DNA of 10,331 bases. Source: a virus. Below, piece after piece: positions 2,159 through 7,644 of this stretch. A program made the position numbers and the translations under genes. The notes beneath the pieces were generated by a model. The model did not search any database. It was not told the DNA's origin and worked only from the letters and a program-made list of their open reading frames with translations. Positions within the stretch are counted from its first letter, which is position 1. Each line of letters begins with the position of its first letter. The DNA lies in the UHGV virus genome UHGV-0298894, one strand, 5' to 3'.

Positions 2159-2343
2159 ACGCCACAATTCAAACGATACCAGAGCTTCTTATCCAGACAC
2201 GAGGCAATCAGACCGAAGTGGCGAGGATGCTTTCCTGCGCAAGAGGAACAGTGCTCAAGTACAACCGAGACAGCAAAGGTGAGCGTCACGTAATAGTTAA
2301 CGGCGTCCTGATGGTCAAACAGGGCAAGAGGGGAAGACGATGA
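2155..2343 (+). CDS. ninH: NinH-like small DNA-binding protein (62 aa)
   Basis: Pattern TIPELL...GNQTEVARML.C.RGTVLKY...G..H.IVNGVLMV parallels recalled lambda NinH. ATGA overlaps on both sides. Confidence 0.75.
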   Translation: MNATIQTIPELLIQTRGNQTEVARMLSCARGTVLKYNRDSKGERHVIVNGVLMVKQGKRGRR

Positions 2344-2963
2344 GACTCGAAAGCGTAGCTAAATTTCACTCGCCAAAAAGCCCGATGATGAGCGACTCAC
2401 CACGGGCCACGGCTTCTGACTCTCTTTCCGGTACTGATGTGATGGCTGCTATGGGGATGGCGCAATCACAAGCCGGATTCGGAATGGCTGCATTCTGCGG
2501 TAAGCATGAACTCAGCCAGAACGACAAACAAAAGGCTATCAACTACCTGATGCAATTTGCACACAAGGTATCGGGGAAATACCGTGGTGTGGCAAAGCTC
2601 GAAGGAAATACTAAGGCAAAGGTACTGCAAGTGCTCGCAACATTCGCTTATGCGGATTATTGCCGTAGTGCCGCGACGCCTGGCGCAAGATGCAGAGATT
2701 GTCACGGTACAGGCCGTGCGGTTGATATAGCAAAAACAGAGCAGTGGGGGAGAGTTGTTGAGAAAGAATGCGGAAGATGCAAAGGTGTCGGCTATTCAAG
2801 GATGCCAGCAAGCGCCGCATATCGCGCTGTGACGATGCTAATCCCAAATCTTACCCAACCCACCTGGTCACGCACTGTTAAGCCGCTGTATGACGCTCTG
2901 GTGGTGCAATGCCACAAAGAAGAGTCAATCGCAGACAACATTTTGAATGCGGTCACACGTTAG
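2340..2963 (+). CDS. Q: Late-gene antiterminator Q (lambda type), 207 aa
   Basis: Translation MRLESVAKFHSPKSPMMSDSPRATASDSLSG...CRDCHGTGRAVD...CGRCKGVGYSR...NILNAVTR is essentially the lambda Q sequence as I recall it, including the zinc-binding Cys motif. It is followed by a pR'/qut-like promoter. Confidence 0.95.
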   Translation: MRLESVAKFHSPKSPMMSDSPRATASDSLSGTDVMAAMGMAQSQAGFGMAAFCGKHELSQNDKQKAINYLMQFAHKVSGKYRGVAKLEGNTKAKVLQVLATFAYADYCRSAATPGARCRDCHGTGRAVDIAKTEQWGRVVEKECGRCKGVGYSRMPASAAYRAVTMLIPNLTQPTWSRTVKPLYDALVVQCHKEESIADNILNAVTR

Positions 2964-3005
2964 CAGCATGATTGCCACGGATGGCAACATATTAACGGCA
3001 TGATA

Positions 3006-3034
3006 TTGACTTTTTGAATAAAGTTGGGTAAATT
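3006..3034 (+). promoter_or_regulatory. Late promoter pR' with overlapping qut (Q-utilisation) site
   Basis: -35 TTGACT (3006-3011), 17-nt spacer, -10 TAAATT (3029-3034), immediately downstream of Q. The sequence matches the lambda pR' region from memory. Confidence 0.8.
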
Positions 3035-3040
3035 TGACCC

Positions 3041-3234
3041 AACGATGGGGTAATTCGCTCGTTGTGGTAGTGAGATGAAAAGAGGCGGCGCTTACTACCG
3101 ATTCCGCCTAGTTGGTCACTTCGACGTATCGTCTGGAACTCCAACCATCGCAGGCTGAGAGGTCTGCAAAATGCAATCCCGAAACAGTTCGCAGGTAATA
3201 GTTAGAGCCTGCATAACGGTTTCGGGATTTTTTA
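3041..3234 (+). ncRNA. 6S-type short late leader transcript (pR' to tR')
   Basis: Predicted start about 7 nt after the -10, ending at the tR' U-run, about 194 nt as for lambda 6S RNA. Boundaries are inferred from the promoter and terminator positions. Confidence 0.65.
3175..3234 (+). terminator. Intrinsic terminator tR'
   Basis: Perfect 11-bp inverted repeat AATCCCGAAAC (3175-3185) / GTTTCGGGATT (3219-3229) enclosing an inner GCAGG/CCTGC hairpin (3191-3212), followed by a T-run. Confidence 0.85.
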
Positions 3235-3243
3235 TATCTGTGT

Positions 3244-3259
3244 AACAGGTAAGAGCATT
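3244..3259 (+). repeat. Left copy of 16-nt direct repeat AACAGGTAAGAGCATT
   Basis: Read directly from the sequence; pairs with 3660..3675 (15 of 16 identical). Confidence 0.7.
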
Positions 3260-3659
3260 CTCCCTTATGGGGCTTGGCTTAAATGCACCGAGTGCTCTTA
3301 TCGTTGTGGCAGCACAACGATAGTTTTCGTCAGAGTTGGCGACTTTGCGGGTTTTTAGAAACTGACCACAAAGATAAATGCAAACGATGATTTGATGTTG
3401 ATGGCGGCCTAAGAGACCAAAATCACTGGGTCTTCCGACTCCCAGCTACCAAATTCGGCGCACTGGCCCGGTGTGATTAATAATGGGCACCCATTCAAAT
3501 GTACTCTCGGTAGGTTCGATTCCTGACTAGACCCAGATGGCGACGGGGAGGGTCCAATTGAGTGGGTAACAACGGGCATGTCGCCTTAGTAAATCCCTCA
3601 AGGGTGCGACGCATAGACCGGTACTAGCGTCGCCGTTAGCTCCACGAAACGGAGCGCAC
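3260..3659 (+). other. Non-coding segment in the late leader between tR' and S, apparently absent from lambda; hairpin-rich candidate structured RNA or cargo remnant
   Basis: The Q-stop to S-start distance is 1102 bp here against about 676 bp in lambda (recalled coordinates). No sense-strand ORF exceeds 35 codons. Contains a perfect 10-bp hairpin (3299-3322), hairpins at 3606-3633 and 3639-3655, and a GGTTCGATTCC T-loop-like motif (3513-3523). Confidence 0.5.
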
Positions 3660-3675
3660 AACAGGTAAGAGTATT
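3660..3675 (+). repeat. Right copy of 16-nt direct repeat AACAGGTAAGAGTATT
   Basis: Read directly from the sequence; one mismatch (C/T) against 3244..3259. Confidence 0.7.
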
Positions 3676-4043
3676 TGTAGAGTTCGACTCTCTATCGTGG
3701 GCTTTTTCCAGCGATGCGAGCCATAAATGCTCTTTCCGTTGTGCTGAATTAAGCGAATACCGGAAGCAGAACCGGATCATCAAATGCGTACAGGCGTCAT
3801 CGCCGCCCAGCAACAGCACAACCCAAACTGAGCCGTAGCCACTGGCTATCCTGAATTCATCAGTGATAGTTACGCTGCGGCCTTCTACACATGACCTCGT
3901 GAAAGCGGGTGGCAAGAGGCTGCGCTAACAACCTCATGCCGTTTTGCCCGTGCATATCGGTCACGAACAAATCTGATTACTAAACACAGTAGCCTGGATT
4001 TGTTCTATCAGTAATCGACCTTATTCCTAATTAAATAGAGCAA

Positions 4044-4074
4044 ATCCCCTTATTGGGGGTAAGACATGAAGATG
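4044..4074 (+). promoter_or_regulatory. S translation-initiation control region (sdi hairpin plus dual start Met1/Met3)
   Basis: CCCC-TTATT-GGGGG hairpin (4046-4059) sequesters the Shine-Dalgarno sequence. Tandem starts ATG 4066 (S107 antiholin) and ATG 4072 (S105 holin) give MKMPEK, as in lambda. Confidence 0.6.
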
Positions 4075-4389: not shown

Positions 4390-4849
4390 TCAACGTAAGG
4401 CGTTCCTCGATATGCTGGCGTGGTCAGAGGGAACTGATAACGGACGGCAGAAAACCAGAAATCATGGTTATGACGTCATTGTTGGCGGAGAGCTATTTAC
4501 TGATTACTCCGATCACCCTCGCAAACTTGTCACGCTAAACCCCAAACTCAAATCAACAGCAGCCGGACGTTACCAGCTTCTTTCCCGTTGGTGGGATGCC
4601 TATCGTAAGCAGCTTGGCCTGAAAGACTTCTCTCCGAAAAGCCAGGACGCTGTGGCATTGCAGCAGATTAAAGAGCGTGGCGCTTTACCGATGATTGATC
4701 GCGGTGATATTCGTCAGGCAATTGACCGTTGCAGCAATATCTGGGCTTCACTGCCGGGCGCTGGTTATGGTCAGTTCGAGCATAAGGCTGACAGCCTGAT
4801 TGCAAAATTCAAAGAAGCAGGCGGAACGGTCAGAGAGATTGAGGTATGA
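4373..4849 (+). CDS. R: Endolysin R (lytic transglycosylase, lambda type), 158 aa
   Basis: [39 protein letters not shown]... matches recalled lambda R. Overlaps the S 3' end and the Rz start. Confidence 0.95.
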
Positions 4850-5283
4850 GCAGAGTAACCGCGATTATCTCCGCTCTGGTTATCTGCATCATCGTCTGCC
4901 TGTCATGGGCTGTTAATCATTACCGTGATAACGCCATCGCCTACAAAGAACAGCGCGATAAAGCCACGTACATCATCGCTGATATGCAGAAGCGTCAACG
5001 TGATGTAGCAGAACTCGACGCCAGATACACAAAGGAGCTTGCTGATGCTAACGCGACTATCGAAAGTCTCCGTGCTGATGTTTCTGCTGGTCGTAAGCGC
5101 CTGCAAGTCGCCGCCACCTGTGCAAAGTCAACGACCGGAGCCAGCAGCATGGGCGATGGAGAAAGCCCAAGACTTACAGCAGATGCTGAACTCAATTATT
5201 ACCGTCTCCGAAGTGGAATCGACAAGATAACCGCGCAGGTTAACTACCTGCAGGAGTACATCAGGACGCAATGCCTGAAATAA
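4846..5283 (+). CDS. Rz: Spanin inner-membrane subunit Rz (i-spanin), 145 aa
   Basis: N-terminal transmembrane segment [31 protein letters not shown] matches lambda Rz for about 30 residues, then diverges into a coiled-coil-like periplasmic domain. ATGA overlap with the R stop. Confidence 0.85.
5045..5230 (+). CDS. Rz1: Spanin outer-membrane lipoprotein Rz1 (o-spanin), embedded in the +1 frame of Rz
   Basis: AAGGAG (5032-5037) lies 7 nt before ATG 5045. The signal peptide [20 protein letters not shown] carries a lipobox (VSAC) followed by a Pro-rich mature region ([13 protein letters not shown]...). The track lists a TTG-initiated version from 5039. Confidence 0.7.
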
Positions 5284-5316
5284 TTTTTTTTGCAAATCAC
5301 AAAGTCCATTTAATGA

Positions 5317-5338
5317 GCCTCGCGATGCGGGGCTTTTT
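5317..5338 (+). terminator. Intrinsic terminator downstream of Rz
   Basis: GCCTCGC-GAT-GCGGGGC stem-loop (7 bp including one G-U pair) followed by TTTTT (5334-5338). Confidence 0.6.
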
Positions 5339-5345
5339 GCAATAA

Positions 5346-5370
5346 ATGCGTACCGCAACGCATGTTTTTT
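5346..5370 (+). terminator. Second, tandem intrinsic terminator
   Basis: ATGCGT-ACCGCA-ACGCAT hairpin followed by G and a six-T run. Confidence 0.55.
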
Positions 5371-5485
5371 ACACCGAACCTGACCCTTTGGAATGGGCCT
5401 TTGAGGATACCAGTTAGTGCTGGCGAGCCTCGGTGGGCTGGTTTCCTGTGCGGCAAAGGTTCATTTCAAATGGTAGGTAAACGTT

Positions 5486-6007
5486 ATGAATATCGTGCCA
5501 CTTAACTACAAAGGTGAAATTGTCAGTTTCAACACTGATGGTTGGATCAACGTCACAGGTGTTGCTGAGAGATTTGGGAAACGCATTGATAACTGGATGC
5601 GTTTGGCAGAAACGCTTGAATACGTTCGTGCTTTAGACGAAGCGTTGACCGGGAAAGAATCTCAAATTTTACATCCCTCACAATCGAGGTATGTAAAAAC
5701 CAGCAAGGCACGAAAGGACAGGGGTGGTGGTACGTGGCTACATCCAAAACTTTCAGTTGCATTTGCCCGTTGGTGTGATGCTCGTTTTGCTGTGTGGTGC
5801 GACCTGCACATTGATAGTCTGCTTCGCGGTGAACTGACTGAGCAGCAGAAATATGAGCAAGCATGTCGCATTCGCGATGACCGGAAATCAAAAGCCAGCA
5901 ATGGGGCAAGAGAGATGGCTCGCTGGCGATGGGATAAGCCGGTTATTGAAGCAAATGTCGAGTACTGGCGCGAGCAACTGCAGTTGACTCTCGATATCGC
6001 GTGCTGA
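5486..6007 (+). CDS. KilA-N domain protein (173 aa)
   Basis: N-terminal half (...GWINVTGVAERFGKR...GTWLHPKLSVAFARWCDARFAVWCD...) has the hallmarks of the KilA-N (APSES-like) DNA-binding domain. AGGT lies 8 nt upstream of the ATG. Confidence 0.75.
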   Translation: MNIVPLNYKGEIVSFNTDGWINVTGVAERFGKRIDNWMRLAETLEYVRALDEALTGKESQILHPSQSRYVKTSKARKDRGGGTWLHPKLSVAFARWCDARFAVWCDLHIDSLLRGELTEQQKYEQACRIRDDRKSKASNGAREMARWRWDKPVIEANVEYWREQLQLTLDIAC

Positions 6008-6296
6008 TGGCAAACGCAAAACTGCGTTATCGAAAAAATCAAAGCATTACGAGAACTGAGCAACGGCTATCCATTACAAAGCCCATCTACGGGTGGGCTT
6101 GATAATGAAACCGGAATTTATTCTGGGCAACCAATTAACGGCAGTACAGCGAAACAACCCAAGCCAGTAAGTGGGGAAATAACACTGGCAGCCACTGAAA
6201 GATGAACCTCCTGCCTTATGGCAAAAAAGATTCTTTGTGGTGGCGGACTGATGGAAAGACATCCTAATCAAGCAACCACTCCACAGGGGCATAATT

Positions 6297-6671
6297 ATGA
6301 ACGACCAGCAAATCGAAAAAGAAATCGTTGAGAAAGGCAAAACGGCACCGCGTGTAACACCCGAGAAAATTGAAGGCCTCATTTGCAGTGAGCATTTTTT
6401 CACTGCTGCGCAGGGTGACCACCAGGCTAAAGAAGATGACCTTATTTATAATCCGGAGCCTTATGTCGAAGCCACCCCTGATGCTCTGCACCTTCTCACT
6501 TTCTGCGTATTGGTACTGAAGAATGGCTTCACCGTTACCGGAGAGAGTGCCTGTGCGAGCCCGGAAAACTTTGATGCAGAAATTGGTCGGAAGATTGCCC
6601 GGCAGAATGCTGTAAACAAAATCTGGATGCTCGAAGGTTACTTGCTGAAGCAGAAGCTAAGCGAACAGTAG
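6297..6671 (+). CDS. Gp49-like protein (phage N4 Gp49 / Sf6 gp66 family), 124 aa
   Basis: Family assignment is from memory of the Phage_gp49_66 family and the Sf6-like genomic context. AGGGG lies upstream of the ATG. Confidence 0.55.
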   Translation: MNDQQIEKEIVEKGKTAPRVTPEKIEGLICSEHFFTAAQGDHQAKEDDLIYNPEPYVEATPDALHLLTFCVLVLKNGFTVTGESACASPENFDAEIGRKIARQNAVNKIWMLEGYLLKQKLSEQ

Positions 6672-6774
6672 TTATTACAAAAGCCATTCCCTACAGAGTG
6701 GCTTTGATAATGGCTTATACCCTACACGGGATAACTTAACTGATATCCCTTTTAACGGATAAACGGAGCCAACA

Positions 6775-7017
6775 ATGGCAGAGATTATTCCCATGACTGA
6801 AGAACAGAAATTCCAGTTAGAGATTTACAAACTGGTCATGAACCAGAACGCAGCCGCAGAAGAAGCATTTCAGTTCATTGGCACTGACGAGCTGAAGCTT
6901 GAGCTATTTAAAATTCACTTCCAGTCAGGCGGCGCTAATTCAGATATCACGACCCGCACTATCGAAGCAGTGCGTAAATCGAAGGAAGCGTTAGACCTGT
7001 TCACTACCGGAGCATGA
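6775..7017 (+). CDS. Hypothetical small acidic phage protein (80 aa)
   Basis: Clean ORF preceded by GGAG, with coding-like codon usage. Its position just upstream of the small terminase parallels the orf80-type genes of P22-like phages. No function is inferable. Confidence 0.55.
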   Translation: MAEIIPMTEEQKFQLEIYKLVMNQNAAAEEAFQFIGTDELKLELFKIHFQSGGANSDITTRTIEAVRKSKEALDLFTTGA

Positions 7018-7018
7018 T

Positions 7019-7198
7019 GTGAGCCGCGTAATCAATTTTGGTAAGGAGAAGAAATTCCCAATTACTCAAGAGCTATACGAGCGGCTGGAAAGCGTCATTC
7101 ATGATTACGATGGTGAAATCAGTTTATGTGAGGCGATTGGCACACTCGAATTGCTGAAGCAGTCACTGATTGAAGGCGCGAAAGAGTCCTCAGCCTGA
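7019..7198 (+). CDS. Hypothetical small protein (59 aa), GTG start, coupled to the upstream ORF
   Basis: GTG 7019 lies 8 nt after GGAG (7007-7010) and 1 nt after the upstream stop. Translation MSRVINFGKEKKFPITQELYERLESVIHDYDGEISLCEAIGTLELLKQSLIEGAKESSA*. It fills the gap before the small terminase and is not in the ORF track (below cutoff, non-ATG start). Confidence 0.35.
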   Translation: MSRVINFGKEKKFPITQELYERLESVIHDYDGEISLCEAIGTLELLKQSLIEGAKESSA

Positions 7199-7221
7199 AA
7201 TAACAACTAAGTGAGATGAAT

Positions 7222-7644
7222 ATGGCGACTGAACCAAAAGCTGGTCGCCCCTCTGATTATATGCCGGAGGTGGCTGACGATATCTGCTCGTTGCTTTCTT
7301 CTGGCGAAAGTTTGCTGAAAGTATGTAAGCGTCCTGGTATGCCGGATAAGTCCACTGTTTTCCGCTGGTTGGCAAAGCATGAGGATTTTCGCGACAAGTA
7401 CGCGAAGGCAACTGAGGCACGAGCTGATTCTATTTTCGAAGAGATATTCGAAATTGCTGACAATGCGATTCCAGATGCTGCTGAGGTGGCAAAGGCAAGA
7501 CTTCGCGTTGATACCCGCAAATGGGCGCTGGCCCGAATGAATCCCCGTAAGTATGGCGACAAGGTAACTAACGAGCTTGTCGGTAAGGACGGCGGCGCAA
7601 TCCAGATTGAAACATCACCGATGAGCACTCTATTCGGAAAATGA
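7222..7644 (+). CDS. Terminase small subunit (Sf6 gp1-like), 140 aa
   Basis: MATEPKAGRPSDYMPEVADDICSLLSSGESLLKVCKRPGMPDKSTVFRWL... matches the Sf6 gp1 small terminase as I recall it. The track ORF starts 2 codons earlier at 7216 (MNMATEP). Its 3' end overlaps the large-terminase start. Confidence 0.85.
   Translation: MATEPKAGRPSDYMPEVADDICSLLSSGESLLKVCKRPGMPDKSTVFRWLAKHEDFRDKYAKATEARADSIFEEIFEIADNAIPDAAEVAKARLRVDTRKWALARMNPRKYGDKVTNELVGKDGGAIQIETSPMSTLFGK

Follow-up and report, generated by a model that had tools for sequence, protein, structure and literature searches.

The slot that follows the lysis gene Rz in lambdoid phages has been known to be variable since the genome papers on HK97, HK620 and P22. 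Its interchangeable occupants include rha in P22, hkbK in HK620, gp73 in HK97 and a T5orf172 nuclease gene in HK106, and HNH nucleases are also found among them. Structured RNAs may be encoded directly upstream of genes of the 'Bro network', whose products are phage DNA-binding proteins with shuffled domains, as in the case of IsrK of Gifsy-1 and c4 of P1, which control antirepressor-type genes. P22 rha is summarised in PMC4936722 as belonging to the late operon and impairing phage growth when the host has no IHF, and the same IHF-linked harm is recorded in the annotation of ES18 gp79. A further precedent comes from the homing endonuclease genes of T-even phages (I-TevI-III, segB, mobE of Aeh1, seg43 of phage 25), in which a selfish or accessory gene lies inside an essential operon. 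Its expression is restrained by an intrinsic terminator, by RNase E processing and by a very stable hairpin that either sequesters the ribosome-binding site or abuts it (PMC2988022).

The window analysed here (the whole stretch of viral DNA, 10,331 nt) carries an HK620/Sf6-type podovirus late region, all features of which are given on the + strand. A lambda-Q-type antiterminator gene (2340..2963), matching Q of HK620, HK97 and HK544, is followed by a PR'-like late promoter (3006..3034, TTGACT-17-TAAATT) that was located by consensus scan, lies at the position of the annotated pR' of HK620 and is the sole good sigma-70 match upstream of the gene under study. The Rz i-spanin gene (4846..5283; Pfam Phage_lysis, E 1.9e-36; PHROG 13), with Rz1 embedded at 5039-5230, closes the series of lysis genes and bounds the slot on the left. 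It is followed by a KilA-N gene encoding 173 aa (5486..6007), the ATG of which lies 115 nt past the second of two T-runs, as stated in a preliminary description of the locus, which also correctly placed lambda bor on the opposite strand directly after Rz. A DUF2560 gene (6775-7017) and a PHROG 3546 gene (7019-7198), in the same order as hkbM and hkbN in HK620, form the conserved last pair ahead of the small terminase gene (7216-7644). No tRNA genes were found in the window.

HK544 gp62 (YP_007151669) also stands after Rz, and the DNA is 99.2% identical over 5285-6268, which includes the first terminator hairpin (T0), the leader and the open reading frame. HK544 differs in being an HK97-like siphovirus, where the gene lies close to the right end of the genome and an HNH gene comes after it, whereas in the window it stands before an Sf6-type terminase. 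The same gene is present in Stx2 phages (as 'kilA' in phage 2851), Salmonella phage Emek and E. coli phage ev099. Given the ~99% identical HK544 copy and the known variability of the slot, the gene itself is already known and encodes one more KilA-N protein, with nothing new about it.

The cargo (5339-6067) is exchanged for other genes between conserved flanks in HK106, HK97, HK620 and BTP1, bearing out the earlier proposal of an accessory region between the lysis and packaging genes, and homology with HK97 and HK106 breaks at 5338. The right border of the cargo is a non-coding block (6068..6263) that is 93–97% identical in HK97, HK620, HK106, HK544 and BTP1 despite their differing cargo, and of which 6130-6263 are homologous to the P22 small RNA P22G (95.6% match). 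A stable hairpin within it (6078-6102; -20.6 kcal/mol, z -5.7) has no U-run and is followed by GAUAAUGAAA; scanning 6008-6296 revealed no + strand terminator-like site. Further downstream, a second accessory gene of the N4 gp49 / Sf6 gp66 family (6297..6671; Pfam PF13876, E 2.4e-34) sits in a precise insertion (6264-6670) that is absent from five compared phages. By these comparisons the region between lysis and packaging genes is recognisable as mosaic, variable and accessory, with the KilA-N gene as its first member.

The KilA-N assignment made previously is upheld, with a match to Pfam PF04383 over residues 7-114 (nt 5504-5827) that spans positions 4-106 of the 107 in the profile and, at 77.5 bits (E 8.2e-22), far exceeds the cut-off of 23.8. 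In the AlphaFold model (pLDDT 92, pTM 0.82) strands and helices extend to residue 114 in an Mbp1/APSES-type alpha-beta fold, and are followed by helices at 118-137 and 141-172; the KilA-N module is thus modelled as a predicted DNA-binding domain of the APSES fold. The C-terminal part, previously described as having no obvious assignment, can now be given one. Residues ~115-169 (nt 5828-5992, the final ~55 residues) form an ORF11CD3-like helical hairpin, although the Pfam scores for ORF11CD3 (PF10549) fall below the cut-off of 25 (16.2 bits for the whole protein, 19.3 bits and E 0.0013 for the C-terminal fragment scanned alone). HHalign matched residues 115-169 to the ORF11CD3 domains of Rha, HkbK and P22_AR_N proteins (96.1%, E 3.5e-9), BLASTP aligned the C-terminus with HkbK residues 68-160 (E 6e-11), residues 118-170 matched PHROG 518 (Rha-like), and PF10549 appears in the precomputed Pfam list for close homologues in the protein database. 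We assign the C-terminus as a divergent ORF11CD3 domain and the protein as a predicted member of the Bro network with two domains. The hairpin probably serves in oligomerisation or in the binding of a partner.

HkbK of HK620 (KilA-N and ORF11CD3) and Rha of P22, BTP1 and ES18 (Rha-N and ORF11CD3) share the slot, the layout of T0 and leader and the C-terminal domain with the window. However Rha carries a Rha domain at its N-terminus, HkbK shows only distant KilA-N similarity, and the ORF11CD3 domain of the window is divergent, scoring 16–19 bits with the Pfam profile. HK97 gp73, in the same slot, has a KilA-N domain 47% identical to that of the window (E 1e-38) and a divergent copy of the leader (52.6 bits), but ends in P63C rather than ORF11CD3. 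No defence-protein model in PADLOC was matched over its full length by the window protein; the sole match (candidate PDC-S22, 22.6 bits, E 1.2e-5) covers residues 12-103, the KilA-N part alone, and membership of a defence system was rejected because the match is at domain level only. Foreign base composition was likewise ruled out (48.1% G+C in the open reading frame, 48.7% in the whole window).

The 200 bases ahead of the gene consist of a terminator and a conserved, pseudoknotted leader RNA without an Rfam family. The intrinsic terminator hairpin T0 (5315..5338, GAGCCUCGC-GAU-GCGGGGCUU, with a U-run at 5334-5338) folds into a predicted 9 bp stem (-14.1 kcal/mol, z -3.3) and is annotated as a terminator in HK544, HK106 and ES18. 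A hairpin with a T-run lies upstream of 132 of 142 related leader copies (93%), with differing stem sequences. Since terminator-like sites are not enriched in the window (16 compared to 10.8 ± 3.9 in shuffles), the identification of T0 rests on this conservation and not on the scan. Two tandem terminators had been proposed after Rz; both hairpins with their T-runs are indeed present (5315-5338 and 5346-5363), but the second is a helix of the leader, P1, and only the first is a conserved terminator and the first element of the cassette. The accompanying notion of insulation is not supported, as a terminator in a Q-antiterminated late operon blocks only unmodified polymerase and does not insulate the genes downstream.

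The leader as a whole (~135 nt, 5340..5485) was identified by covariance model, covariation and MFE; the model matches 5340-5491 with 147.8 bits and the MFE is -54 kcal/mol (z -3.3). It comprises P1, a linker and a long hairpin that begins with P2 (5386-5403 with 5454-5470, 17–19 bp) and continues into P3 and apical helices. P1 (5346..5363, AUGCGU-ACCGCA-ACGCAU), defined by its fold and pair conservation, is a 6 bp hairpin (-6.9 kcal/mol, z -1.9) whose pairs are 99% kept, two of four with compensatory changes; the T6 run that follows it (5365-5370) is peculiar to this sub-variant and missing in P22, ES18, Ss-VASD, RothC and others. The loop of P1 (CCGCA, 5353-5357) pairs with UGCGG (5449-5453), part of the 3'-side internal loop of the long hairpin (UGUGCGG, 5447-5453), to form a pseudoknot. 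Its two halves are always found in the same leader, ~95 nt apart and at fixed positions, and in one phage with two leader copies the complementary pentamers differ between the copies. The apical sequence is invariant, as are certain unpaired nucleotides.

Compensatory changes were observed at 9 of 36 pairs in a MAFFT alignment (n=23), compared to 2.6 in shuffles (0/500). Among 52 leader copies 95.7% of cells are paired and 23 of the 36 pairs show compensation (10.4 in shuffles, at most 13 in slid controls), although fitting this alignment to the structure of the model makes the pair counts for the nested helices too high, while the pseudoknot is unaffected. The pseudoknot, which is not part of the search model, is 94.8% paired with 17 compensatory cells compared to 3.7 in shuffles (0/500). 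The many G-U pairs, together with scores of ~16 bits for the reverse strand compared to ~150 bits, show that the structure belongs to the sense strand.

Rfam searches of the window (E <= 1) and of 5290-5500 (E <= 10) gave only chance miRNA, snoRNA and sRNA matches far below gathering scores, and none to the C4, c4-a1b1, isrK or small-ribozyme models; a literature text search with the leader core sequence gave nothing. A small coding ORF within the leader (5362-5505, 47 aa) was rejected because substitutions lack 3-nt periodicity (judged by eye on a seven-sequence alignment) and compensate across helices (from the covariation test). An integron attC-like single-stranded DNA site (hairpin plus 'AAC' linker) was rejected as the RYYYAAC core is not kept, the pseudoknot would be unexplained and the structure is sense-strand specific, and the likeness to a pistol ribozyme is topological only, with no model match. 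As Rha is linked to IHF we also searched for the IHF consensus WATCAANNNNTTR, and found no site with one mismatch or fewer in 5284-5500.

The leader is present in 954 of 5426 complete E. coli genomes (~1 in 6), and this single conserved RNA module goes with very different accessory genes, encoding Rha, KilA-N, P22_AR_N, HNH (HNH_3) and T5orf172 proteins. Despite the differing genes, the downstream ATG lies within 3 nt of the spacing seen in the window in 125 of 130 copies. The Shine-Dalgarno sequence (AGG, 5475-5477) lies 4–5 nt past the conserved basal helix in leaders of the window type. Its GG is predicted to be largely paired (P(unpaired) < 0.3 in 45 of 50 variants; median 0.01, compared to 0.28 without the leader), a pairing that involves a less conserved extension (CCUGACC/GGUAGG) in a thermodynamic prediction that ignores the pseudoknot. 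In P22 and BTP1, the region upstream of rha contains 99 nt that are 100% identical to the leader stretch, and the main hairpin has recently been reported as a P22 small RNA: 5392-5470 are identical to the first 79 nt of P22F, a discrete 89-nt RNA detected in P22 infection, the ends of which were called from small-RNA read coverage only (PMC13397905, 2026). P22F was described as a read-coverage feature with 'no known function', for which its authors suggest an IsrK-like role; the fold, pseudoknot, conservation and association with cassettes are not described in that report (PMC13397905).

Separate regulation by a promoter of the gene's own in 5371-5485 had been suggested. We reject this, since a sigma-70 consensus scan gave no match there or elsewhere in 5284-5485, and the stretch is structured leader up to the Shine-Dalgarno sequence; the 200 nt upstream of the gene are unsuited to promoter mining, and gene-specific regulation appears to be post-transcriptional. 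We think it rather probable that the gene forms part of a promoterless cassette that is read only by Q-modified polymerase and whose translation is throttled by the leader. The cassette would have three parts, namely T0, the ~135-nt pseudoknotted leader, and an open reading frame whose ATG keeps an almost constant spacing to the leader. Unmodified RNA polymerase would halt at T0, and the gene would therefore be silent in the lysogen. Reading the cassette would require the terminator-resistant polymerase that arises through the Q gene product, with Q-modified polymerase starting from PR' as the sole source of transcription, within the late operon. The basal helix would pair with or abut the Shine-Dalgarno sequence, and the leader would limit or time translation, perhaps also acting as a processing or stability point that gives rise to a stable hairpin RNA (P22F in P22). 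The outcome would be a potentially harmful DNA-binding or nuclease payload held at low dose. It is the Q dependence, the translational throttling and the target of the protein that we infer here; our direct observations are the domain architecture, the slot, a leader that is conserved, covaries and goes together with T0 and diverse payloads, and the absent promoter match. If true, this would go some way to account for the tolerance of toxic nucleases and DNA-binding proteins in an essential late operon, and would provide a small natural module by which expression is tied to Q antitermination.

A classical moron, in the sense of Juhala and Hendrix, is an additional gene that has a promoter and a terminator of its own and is expressed independently. 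That the KilA-N gene is such a module, with a promoter in 5371-5485, two insulating terminators and possibly prophage expression for host killing, exclusion or anti-defence, is very unlikely. The cargo is indeed replaced between genes that are adjacent in relatives, and the same variable slot holds bor, a prophage-expressed moron, in lambda. The neighbouring pid gene is prophage-expressed in BTP1 (PMC7067206), KilA-N domains are present in the abortive-infection protein BstA (PMC8585504), and the KilA-N part gave the weak match to PDC-S22 noted above. However the supposed promoter interval, without a sigma-70 match, is a covarying sense-strand RNA structure, the second 'terminator' is P1 and has no T-run in most relatives, no terminator follows the gene (the hairpin at 6078-6102 being without a U-run), and there is no G+C anomaly. 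[quoted passage not shown] Even less credible is the idea that conservation of the leader is a functionless by-product of recombination, as a 'boundary sequence' or homing-endonuclease target homogenised through frequent cassette exchange, which we regard as extremely improbable. It would fit the complete identity with P22 over 99 nt compared to ~82% in the neighbouring Rz region, the mosaic joints at the leader edges and the homing-type nucleases (HNH_3, T5orf172) among the payloads. Yet the fold is maintained in divergent variants, those of HK620 and HK97 among them, and since recombination alone gives no compensatory changes, those seen at 23 of 36 pairs and in the pseudoknot largely refute it.

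It is also rather unlikely that the leader is chiefly a trans-acting or processed small RNA comparable to IsrK or c4, in which case the complementarity between loop and internal loop would be a specificity code between molecules and not a pseudoknot. The accumulation of P22F and the role suggested for it (PMC13397905) would suit such an RNA, as would the differing pentamers of the two copies in one phage and the membership of the downstream genes in the same Bro network as ant and anrP. Against it, the leader has no covariance-model similarity to isrK or C4 (Rfam C4, c4-a1b1 and isrK were unmatched even at E 10), the complementary segments keep to one leader at a fixed distance, the near-constant spacing to the downstream ATG argues for action in cis, and the P22F ends derive from read coverage. 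Decidedly unlikely, too, is a primary role in RNA processing, as a self-cleaving ribozyme or RNase III/E site at which the late transcript would be cut between its lysis and packaging parts, with T0 as protective 3' end upstream and a 5' hairpin protecting the downstream part. The compact pseudoknotted topology and invariant unpaired nucleotides would be in keeping with this, and the docking of a hairpin loop into an internal loop may loosely resemble the pistol ribozyme. The leader is phage-borne and a genome can contain several copies, P22F has its 5' end inside P2, and the seg and mob genes of T4 are known to undergo processing by RNase E (PMC2988022). However no Rfam ribozyme family was matched, P2 at 17–19 bp is far longer than in known small ribozymes, and the paired Shine-Dalgarno sequence would be left unexplained.

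The cassettes, with HNH and T5orf172 nucleases among their payloads, resemble the T-even cases of an accessory gene restrained inside an essential operon. T-even hairpins, however, are gene-specific, simple and bypassed by an internal late promoter, whereas the leader is one conserved pseudoknotted family with many unrelated payloads and no internal promoter seen. Its pseudoknot and invariant apical sequence exceed the needs of a simple occluding hairpin, and the leader may therefore act otherwise, by factor binding, in trans or through self-cleavage. So elaborate a structure hints at a role beyond passively blocking the ribosome site. The leader could be a ribozyme, a switch that responds to a factor or ligand, or a self-specific RNA code, the last of these prompted by the phage whose two copies have different pentamer pairs. 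It is a real possibility, if short of probable, that T0 and the leader represent an uncatalogued structured-RNA class that marks and controls mobile promoterless cassettes in the late operons of Enterobacterales lambdoid phages. The cassettes meant are those that carry DNA binders of the Bro network and nucleases of homing type. Should the leader serve selfish cassettes as a dedicated governor of their expression, it offers a handle to find them where the payload is unknown. We note in passing that many Rha coding sequences in databases have been extended too far, into the leader.

The gene at 5486–6007 (+ strand) and the slot that it fills after Rz are both known, and we regard these assignments as close to certain; the part of this region deserving follow-up is instead a widespread, strongly covarying and uncatalogued leader RNA of ~135 nt (5340–5485). 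This leader occupies the interval that the preliminary description had proposed for a promoter search, and the regulatory reading given there is largely wrong. The window covers late regulation, lysis and packaging in a P22-like (HK620-like) lambdoid phage or prophage, and over its entire length HK620 is the best match (96.7% identity across 73%). The order is roi, HNH, rusA, ninH, Q (2340–2963), a PR'-like promoter (3006–3034), S, R and Rz/Rz1 (to 5283), followed by the ORF at 5486–6007, a gp49/Sf6-gp66-family gene, DUF2560, a PHROG-3546 gene, Sf6-type small terminase, large terminase and portal. The Q–holin interval (2964–4065, 1.1 kb) holds, besides the PR'-like promoter, a terminator-like hairpin (3298–3323) and tmRNA-like Rfam matches at 3358–3459, all sub-threshold; no tRNA genes were found in it, although BTP1 and RothC do have tRNAs at that place.

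The ORF begins at ATG 5486 and encodes 173 aa, as described, and its KilA-N domain (residues 7–114) scores 77.5 bits in Pfam against a cut-off of 23.8. The C-terminus, previously left without assignment, is an ORF11CD3 region: it reaches 16–19 bits with the Pfam model, under the cut-off of 25, and is matched by BLASTP to the ORF11CD3 region of HK620 HkbK (E 6e-11) and by HHalign to an ORF11CD3 profile of Rha, HkbK and P22_AR_N proteins (96% probability, E 3.5e-9), while PHROGs likewise ties it to Rha-like regulators. The AlphaFold model (34 homologues as input) is confident (pLDDT 92, pTM 0.82), with two long antiparallel helices at residues 118–172. Many Pseudomonas proteins share the complete two-domain architecture at 50–60% identity, which makes this a stable family. 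Phage DNA-interacting proteins of the Bro network are built from shuffled modules, namely KilA-N, Rha-N, P22_AR_N, ANT, P63C, ORF11CD3 and T5orf172 (PMC10111431). The protein most likely binds DNA via its KilA-N domain, the ORF11CD3 hairpin probably serving oligomerisation or partner docking, and it would match Rha and HkbK in function, being made late, dispensable, and damaging in excess. A further Bro-network protein, roi (787–1509; Rha-N + ANT/KilAC, PHROG 63 'anti-repressor'), lies in the nin region, and the covariance model described below found no leader upstream of it.

The same DNA, upstream region included, is present in HK544 (gp62) at 99.2% identity, and is also carried by Emek, ev099 and Stx2 phages. 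Elsewhere the slot after Rz holds hkbK (KilA-N + ORF11CD3; HK620), rha (Rha-N + ORF11CD3; P22, BTP1 and ES18), gp73 (KilA-N + P63C; HK97) or a T5orf172/GIY-YIG-like nuclease (HK106). Since differing known genes fill one slot, the proposed accessory cluster is real and the ORF is an already-known member of it; the comparison with lambda, which carries bor on the opposite strand at the corresponding place, was also correct, and the leader is absent from lambda. In pairwise BLASTN the mosaic joints fall at 5338, where the first terminator ends, and at 6067/6068. Beyond lies, in all phages compared, a non-coding block (6068–6263), kept at 93–97% across phages differing in cargo on both sides, which contains a very stable hairpin without a U-run (6078–6102; -20.6 kcal/mol, z -5.7) and a 95.6% match to the P22 small RNA P22G (6130–6263; PMC13397905). 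The gp49 (N4)/Sf6 gp66-family gene (ORF 6297–6671) is a precise additional insertion of 6264–6670, as 6263 abuts 6671 directly in HK620, HK97, HK106, HK544 and BTP1; no leader copy was found upstream of it. The next segment, 6671–6856, is common to the HK97-like siphoviruses HK97, HK106 and HK544, and homology stops at 6856 in a joint within coding sequence, inside the DUF2560 gene (6775–7017), an HNH gene coming next in those three phages.

The leader is very probably a real structured RNA. Folded singly, representatives of three divergent types (window/ES18, HK620/HK106 and HK97) have strongly negative minimum free energies (-45 to -54 kcal/mol), and those of window/ES18 and HK620 type adopt the same short hairpin (P1), linker and long interrupted hairpin reaching the ribosome-binding site; HK97 is assigned to this architecture on the basis of the covariance-model alignment and not of its single-sequence fold. 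In a MAFFT alignment of 23 sequences, from which the covariance model was derived, nine of 36 predicted pairs are compensatory (2.6 expected; none of 500 shuffles equal; slid controls at most 5). An alignment of 52 copies, biased towards nested helices as it was fitted to the model, has 95.7% of cells paired and 23 of 36 pairs compensatory, where shuffles give 10.4 and slid controls no more than 13. A predicted pseudoknot emerges independently of the model: the loop of P1 can pair with the internal loop on the 3' side of the long hairpin, and the two co-vary (the window has CCGCA/UGCGG, HK620 has UCUCA/UGAGA, HK97 has UUCUCG/CGAGAA, and other copies have UCGCA/UGCGA, UCGCG/CGCGA or CGCUC/GAGCG). 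It is 94.8% paired overall, with 17 compensatory cells where shuffles give 3.7 (0/500) and slid controls no more than 4. The many G-U pairs, together with scores of ~16 bits for the reverse strand compared to ~150, place the structure on the sense strand, that is, in the late transcript. No Rfam family matched the isolated leader region, even at E 10.

Two hairpins with T-runs do follow Rz, as the preliminary description had it. The first, T0 (5315–5338), has 9 bp and -14.1 kcal/mol (z -3.3); the second (5346–5363 with T6; 6 bp, -6.9 kcal/mol, z -1.9), taken for another terminator, is P1, the first element of the leader, and its T-run is missing in most relatives. Of the 142 leader copies, 132 have a G+C-rich hairpin and T-run no more than 60 nt upstream, with stem sequences that vary among lineages; the terminator thus belongs to the unit irrespective of the upstream gene.

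A pattern scan of IMG/VR gave at least 120 contigs, and among the matches listed the core-to-ATG spacing differs by no more than 3 nt from the 75 nt of the window in 125 of 130 copies. Rha-N+ORF11CD3 is the commonest payload type, the others being KilA-N+ORF11CD3, KilA-N+P63C, P22_AR_N+ORF11CD3, HNH_3(+AP2), T5orf172/MUG113 nucleases and a few more. The covariance model brought in additional, much more divergent copies, including second copies in a dozen phages (sequences L006, at 123–271 and 1493–1642; L010, at 1467–1616 and 2751–2891; and L014, L028, L033, L035, L040, L047, L048, L069, L077 and L078). The two copies in one phage stand before different genes, such as ant, upstream of Rz, in Ss-VASD or a TerB-like gene in CharmingMan, and in most of these phages their pseudoknot pentamers differ, which could prevent cross-pairing. 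Of 5426 complete E. coli genomes, 954 carry the window-type leader, with five copies at most in any of them, and it is either not annotated or overlapped by 'Rha family' CDSs over-extended at the N-terminus. The 21 species representatives with a leader are all Enterobacterales but for one probable contaminant: a 4 kb contig of a 'Candidatus Nanosynbacter' MAG (Saccharibacteria; L139, JARKOR010000234.1) carries a full-score copy (153.9 bits), probably through binning, because every other match is from Enterobacterales.

We propose a promoterless cassette of T0, leader and gene, with the ORF as its payload. T0 would halt unmodified polymerase; terminators are ignored by polymerase modified by lambda-type Q, and Q-modified polymerase from PR' would therefore read the gene as a member of the late operon. 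Expression is thus probably late and Q-dependent, with no promoter of its own. A much less likely view is of a moron transcribed from its own promoter. BTP1 shares 99 nt of the leader without a difference, and in its lysogens RNA-seq places the lytic genes in a single polycistronic operon starting upstream of the holin, and only bstA, cI, pid, gtrA and gtrC, not rha, are highly expressed prophage genes (PMC7067206). P22 rha is described, in PMC4936722 and in the annotation of ES18, as belonging to the late operon and as encoding a product that stops phage growth in IHF-deficient hosts. That the conservation of the leader reflects pure recombination linkage is improbable. The stretch 5372–5470 is 100% identical to DNA upstream of rha in P22 and BTP1, where adjacent Rz DNA is only ~82% identical. 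Copies at 80–87% identity stand before unrelated genes: Ss-VASD has a hypothetical gene there, ES18 and Hafnia phage Meifeng have rha, and Klebsiella phage RothC and E. coli phage CharmingMan have an HNH endonuclease gene, the element in the last two lying between Q (or tRNA genes) and holin, not after Rz.

The pseudoknotted leader may keep translation low or time it, and throttling of this kind is a tentative candidate for its main role. Among 50 distinct leaders, 45 have a Shine-Dalgarno GG that is predicted as paired (P unpaired < 0.3); the median P unpaired is 0.01, compared to 0.28 if folding is confined to 22 nt of upstream sequence. In HK620/HK97-type variants AAGG lies within the basal helix (CCUUU with AAAGG), and in the window type 4–5 nt past it, pairing through a less conserved extension. 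Free-standing homing endonuclease genes of T-even phages are held down by intrinsic terminators and RNase E processing, and also by stable hairpins that mask the ribosome-binding site or lie against it (PMC2988022). Two less likely readings are that the leader is mainly a trans-acting RNA of the IsrK/c4 kind, or a ribozyme or processing site. P22F, an 89-nt sense RNA of 'no known function' from a 2026 study of small RNAs in P22 infection, ends 6 nt upstream of the rha start (PMC13397905), and its first 79 nt are identical to window 5392–5470. Within the cassette reading, the leader may be a processing or stability point as well, a P22F-like hairpin being left over.

The annotated rha start falls inside the leader RNA in P22, in BTP1 (L003 in our set, 3046–3651) and in many E. 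coli prophages (RefSeq sequences H103–H108); the aligned ATG is the likelier start, giving a product of 182 aa.
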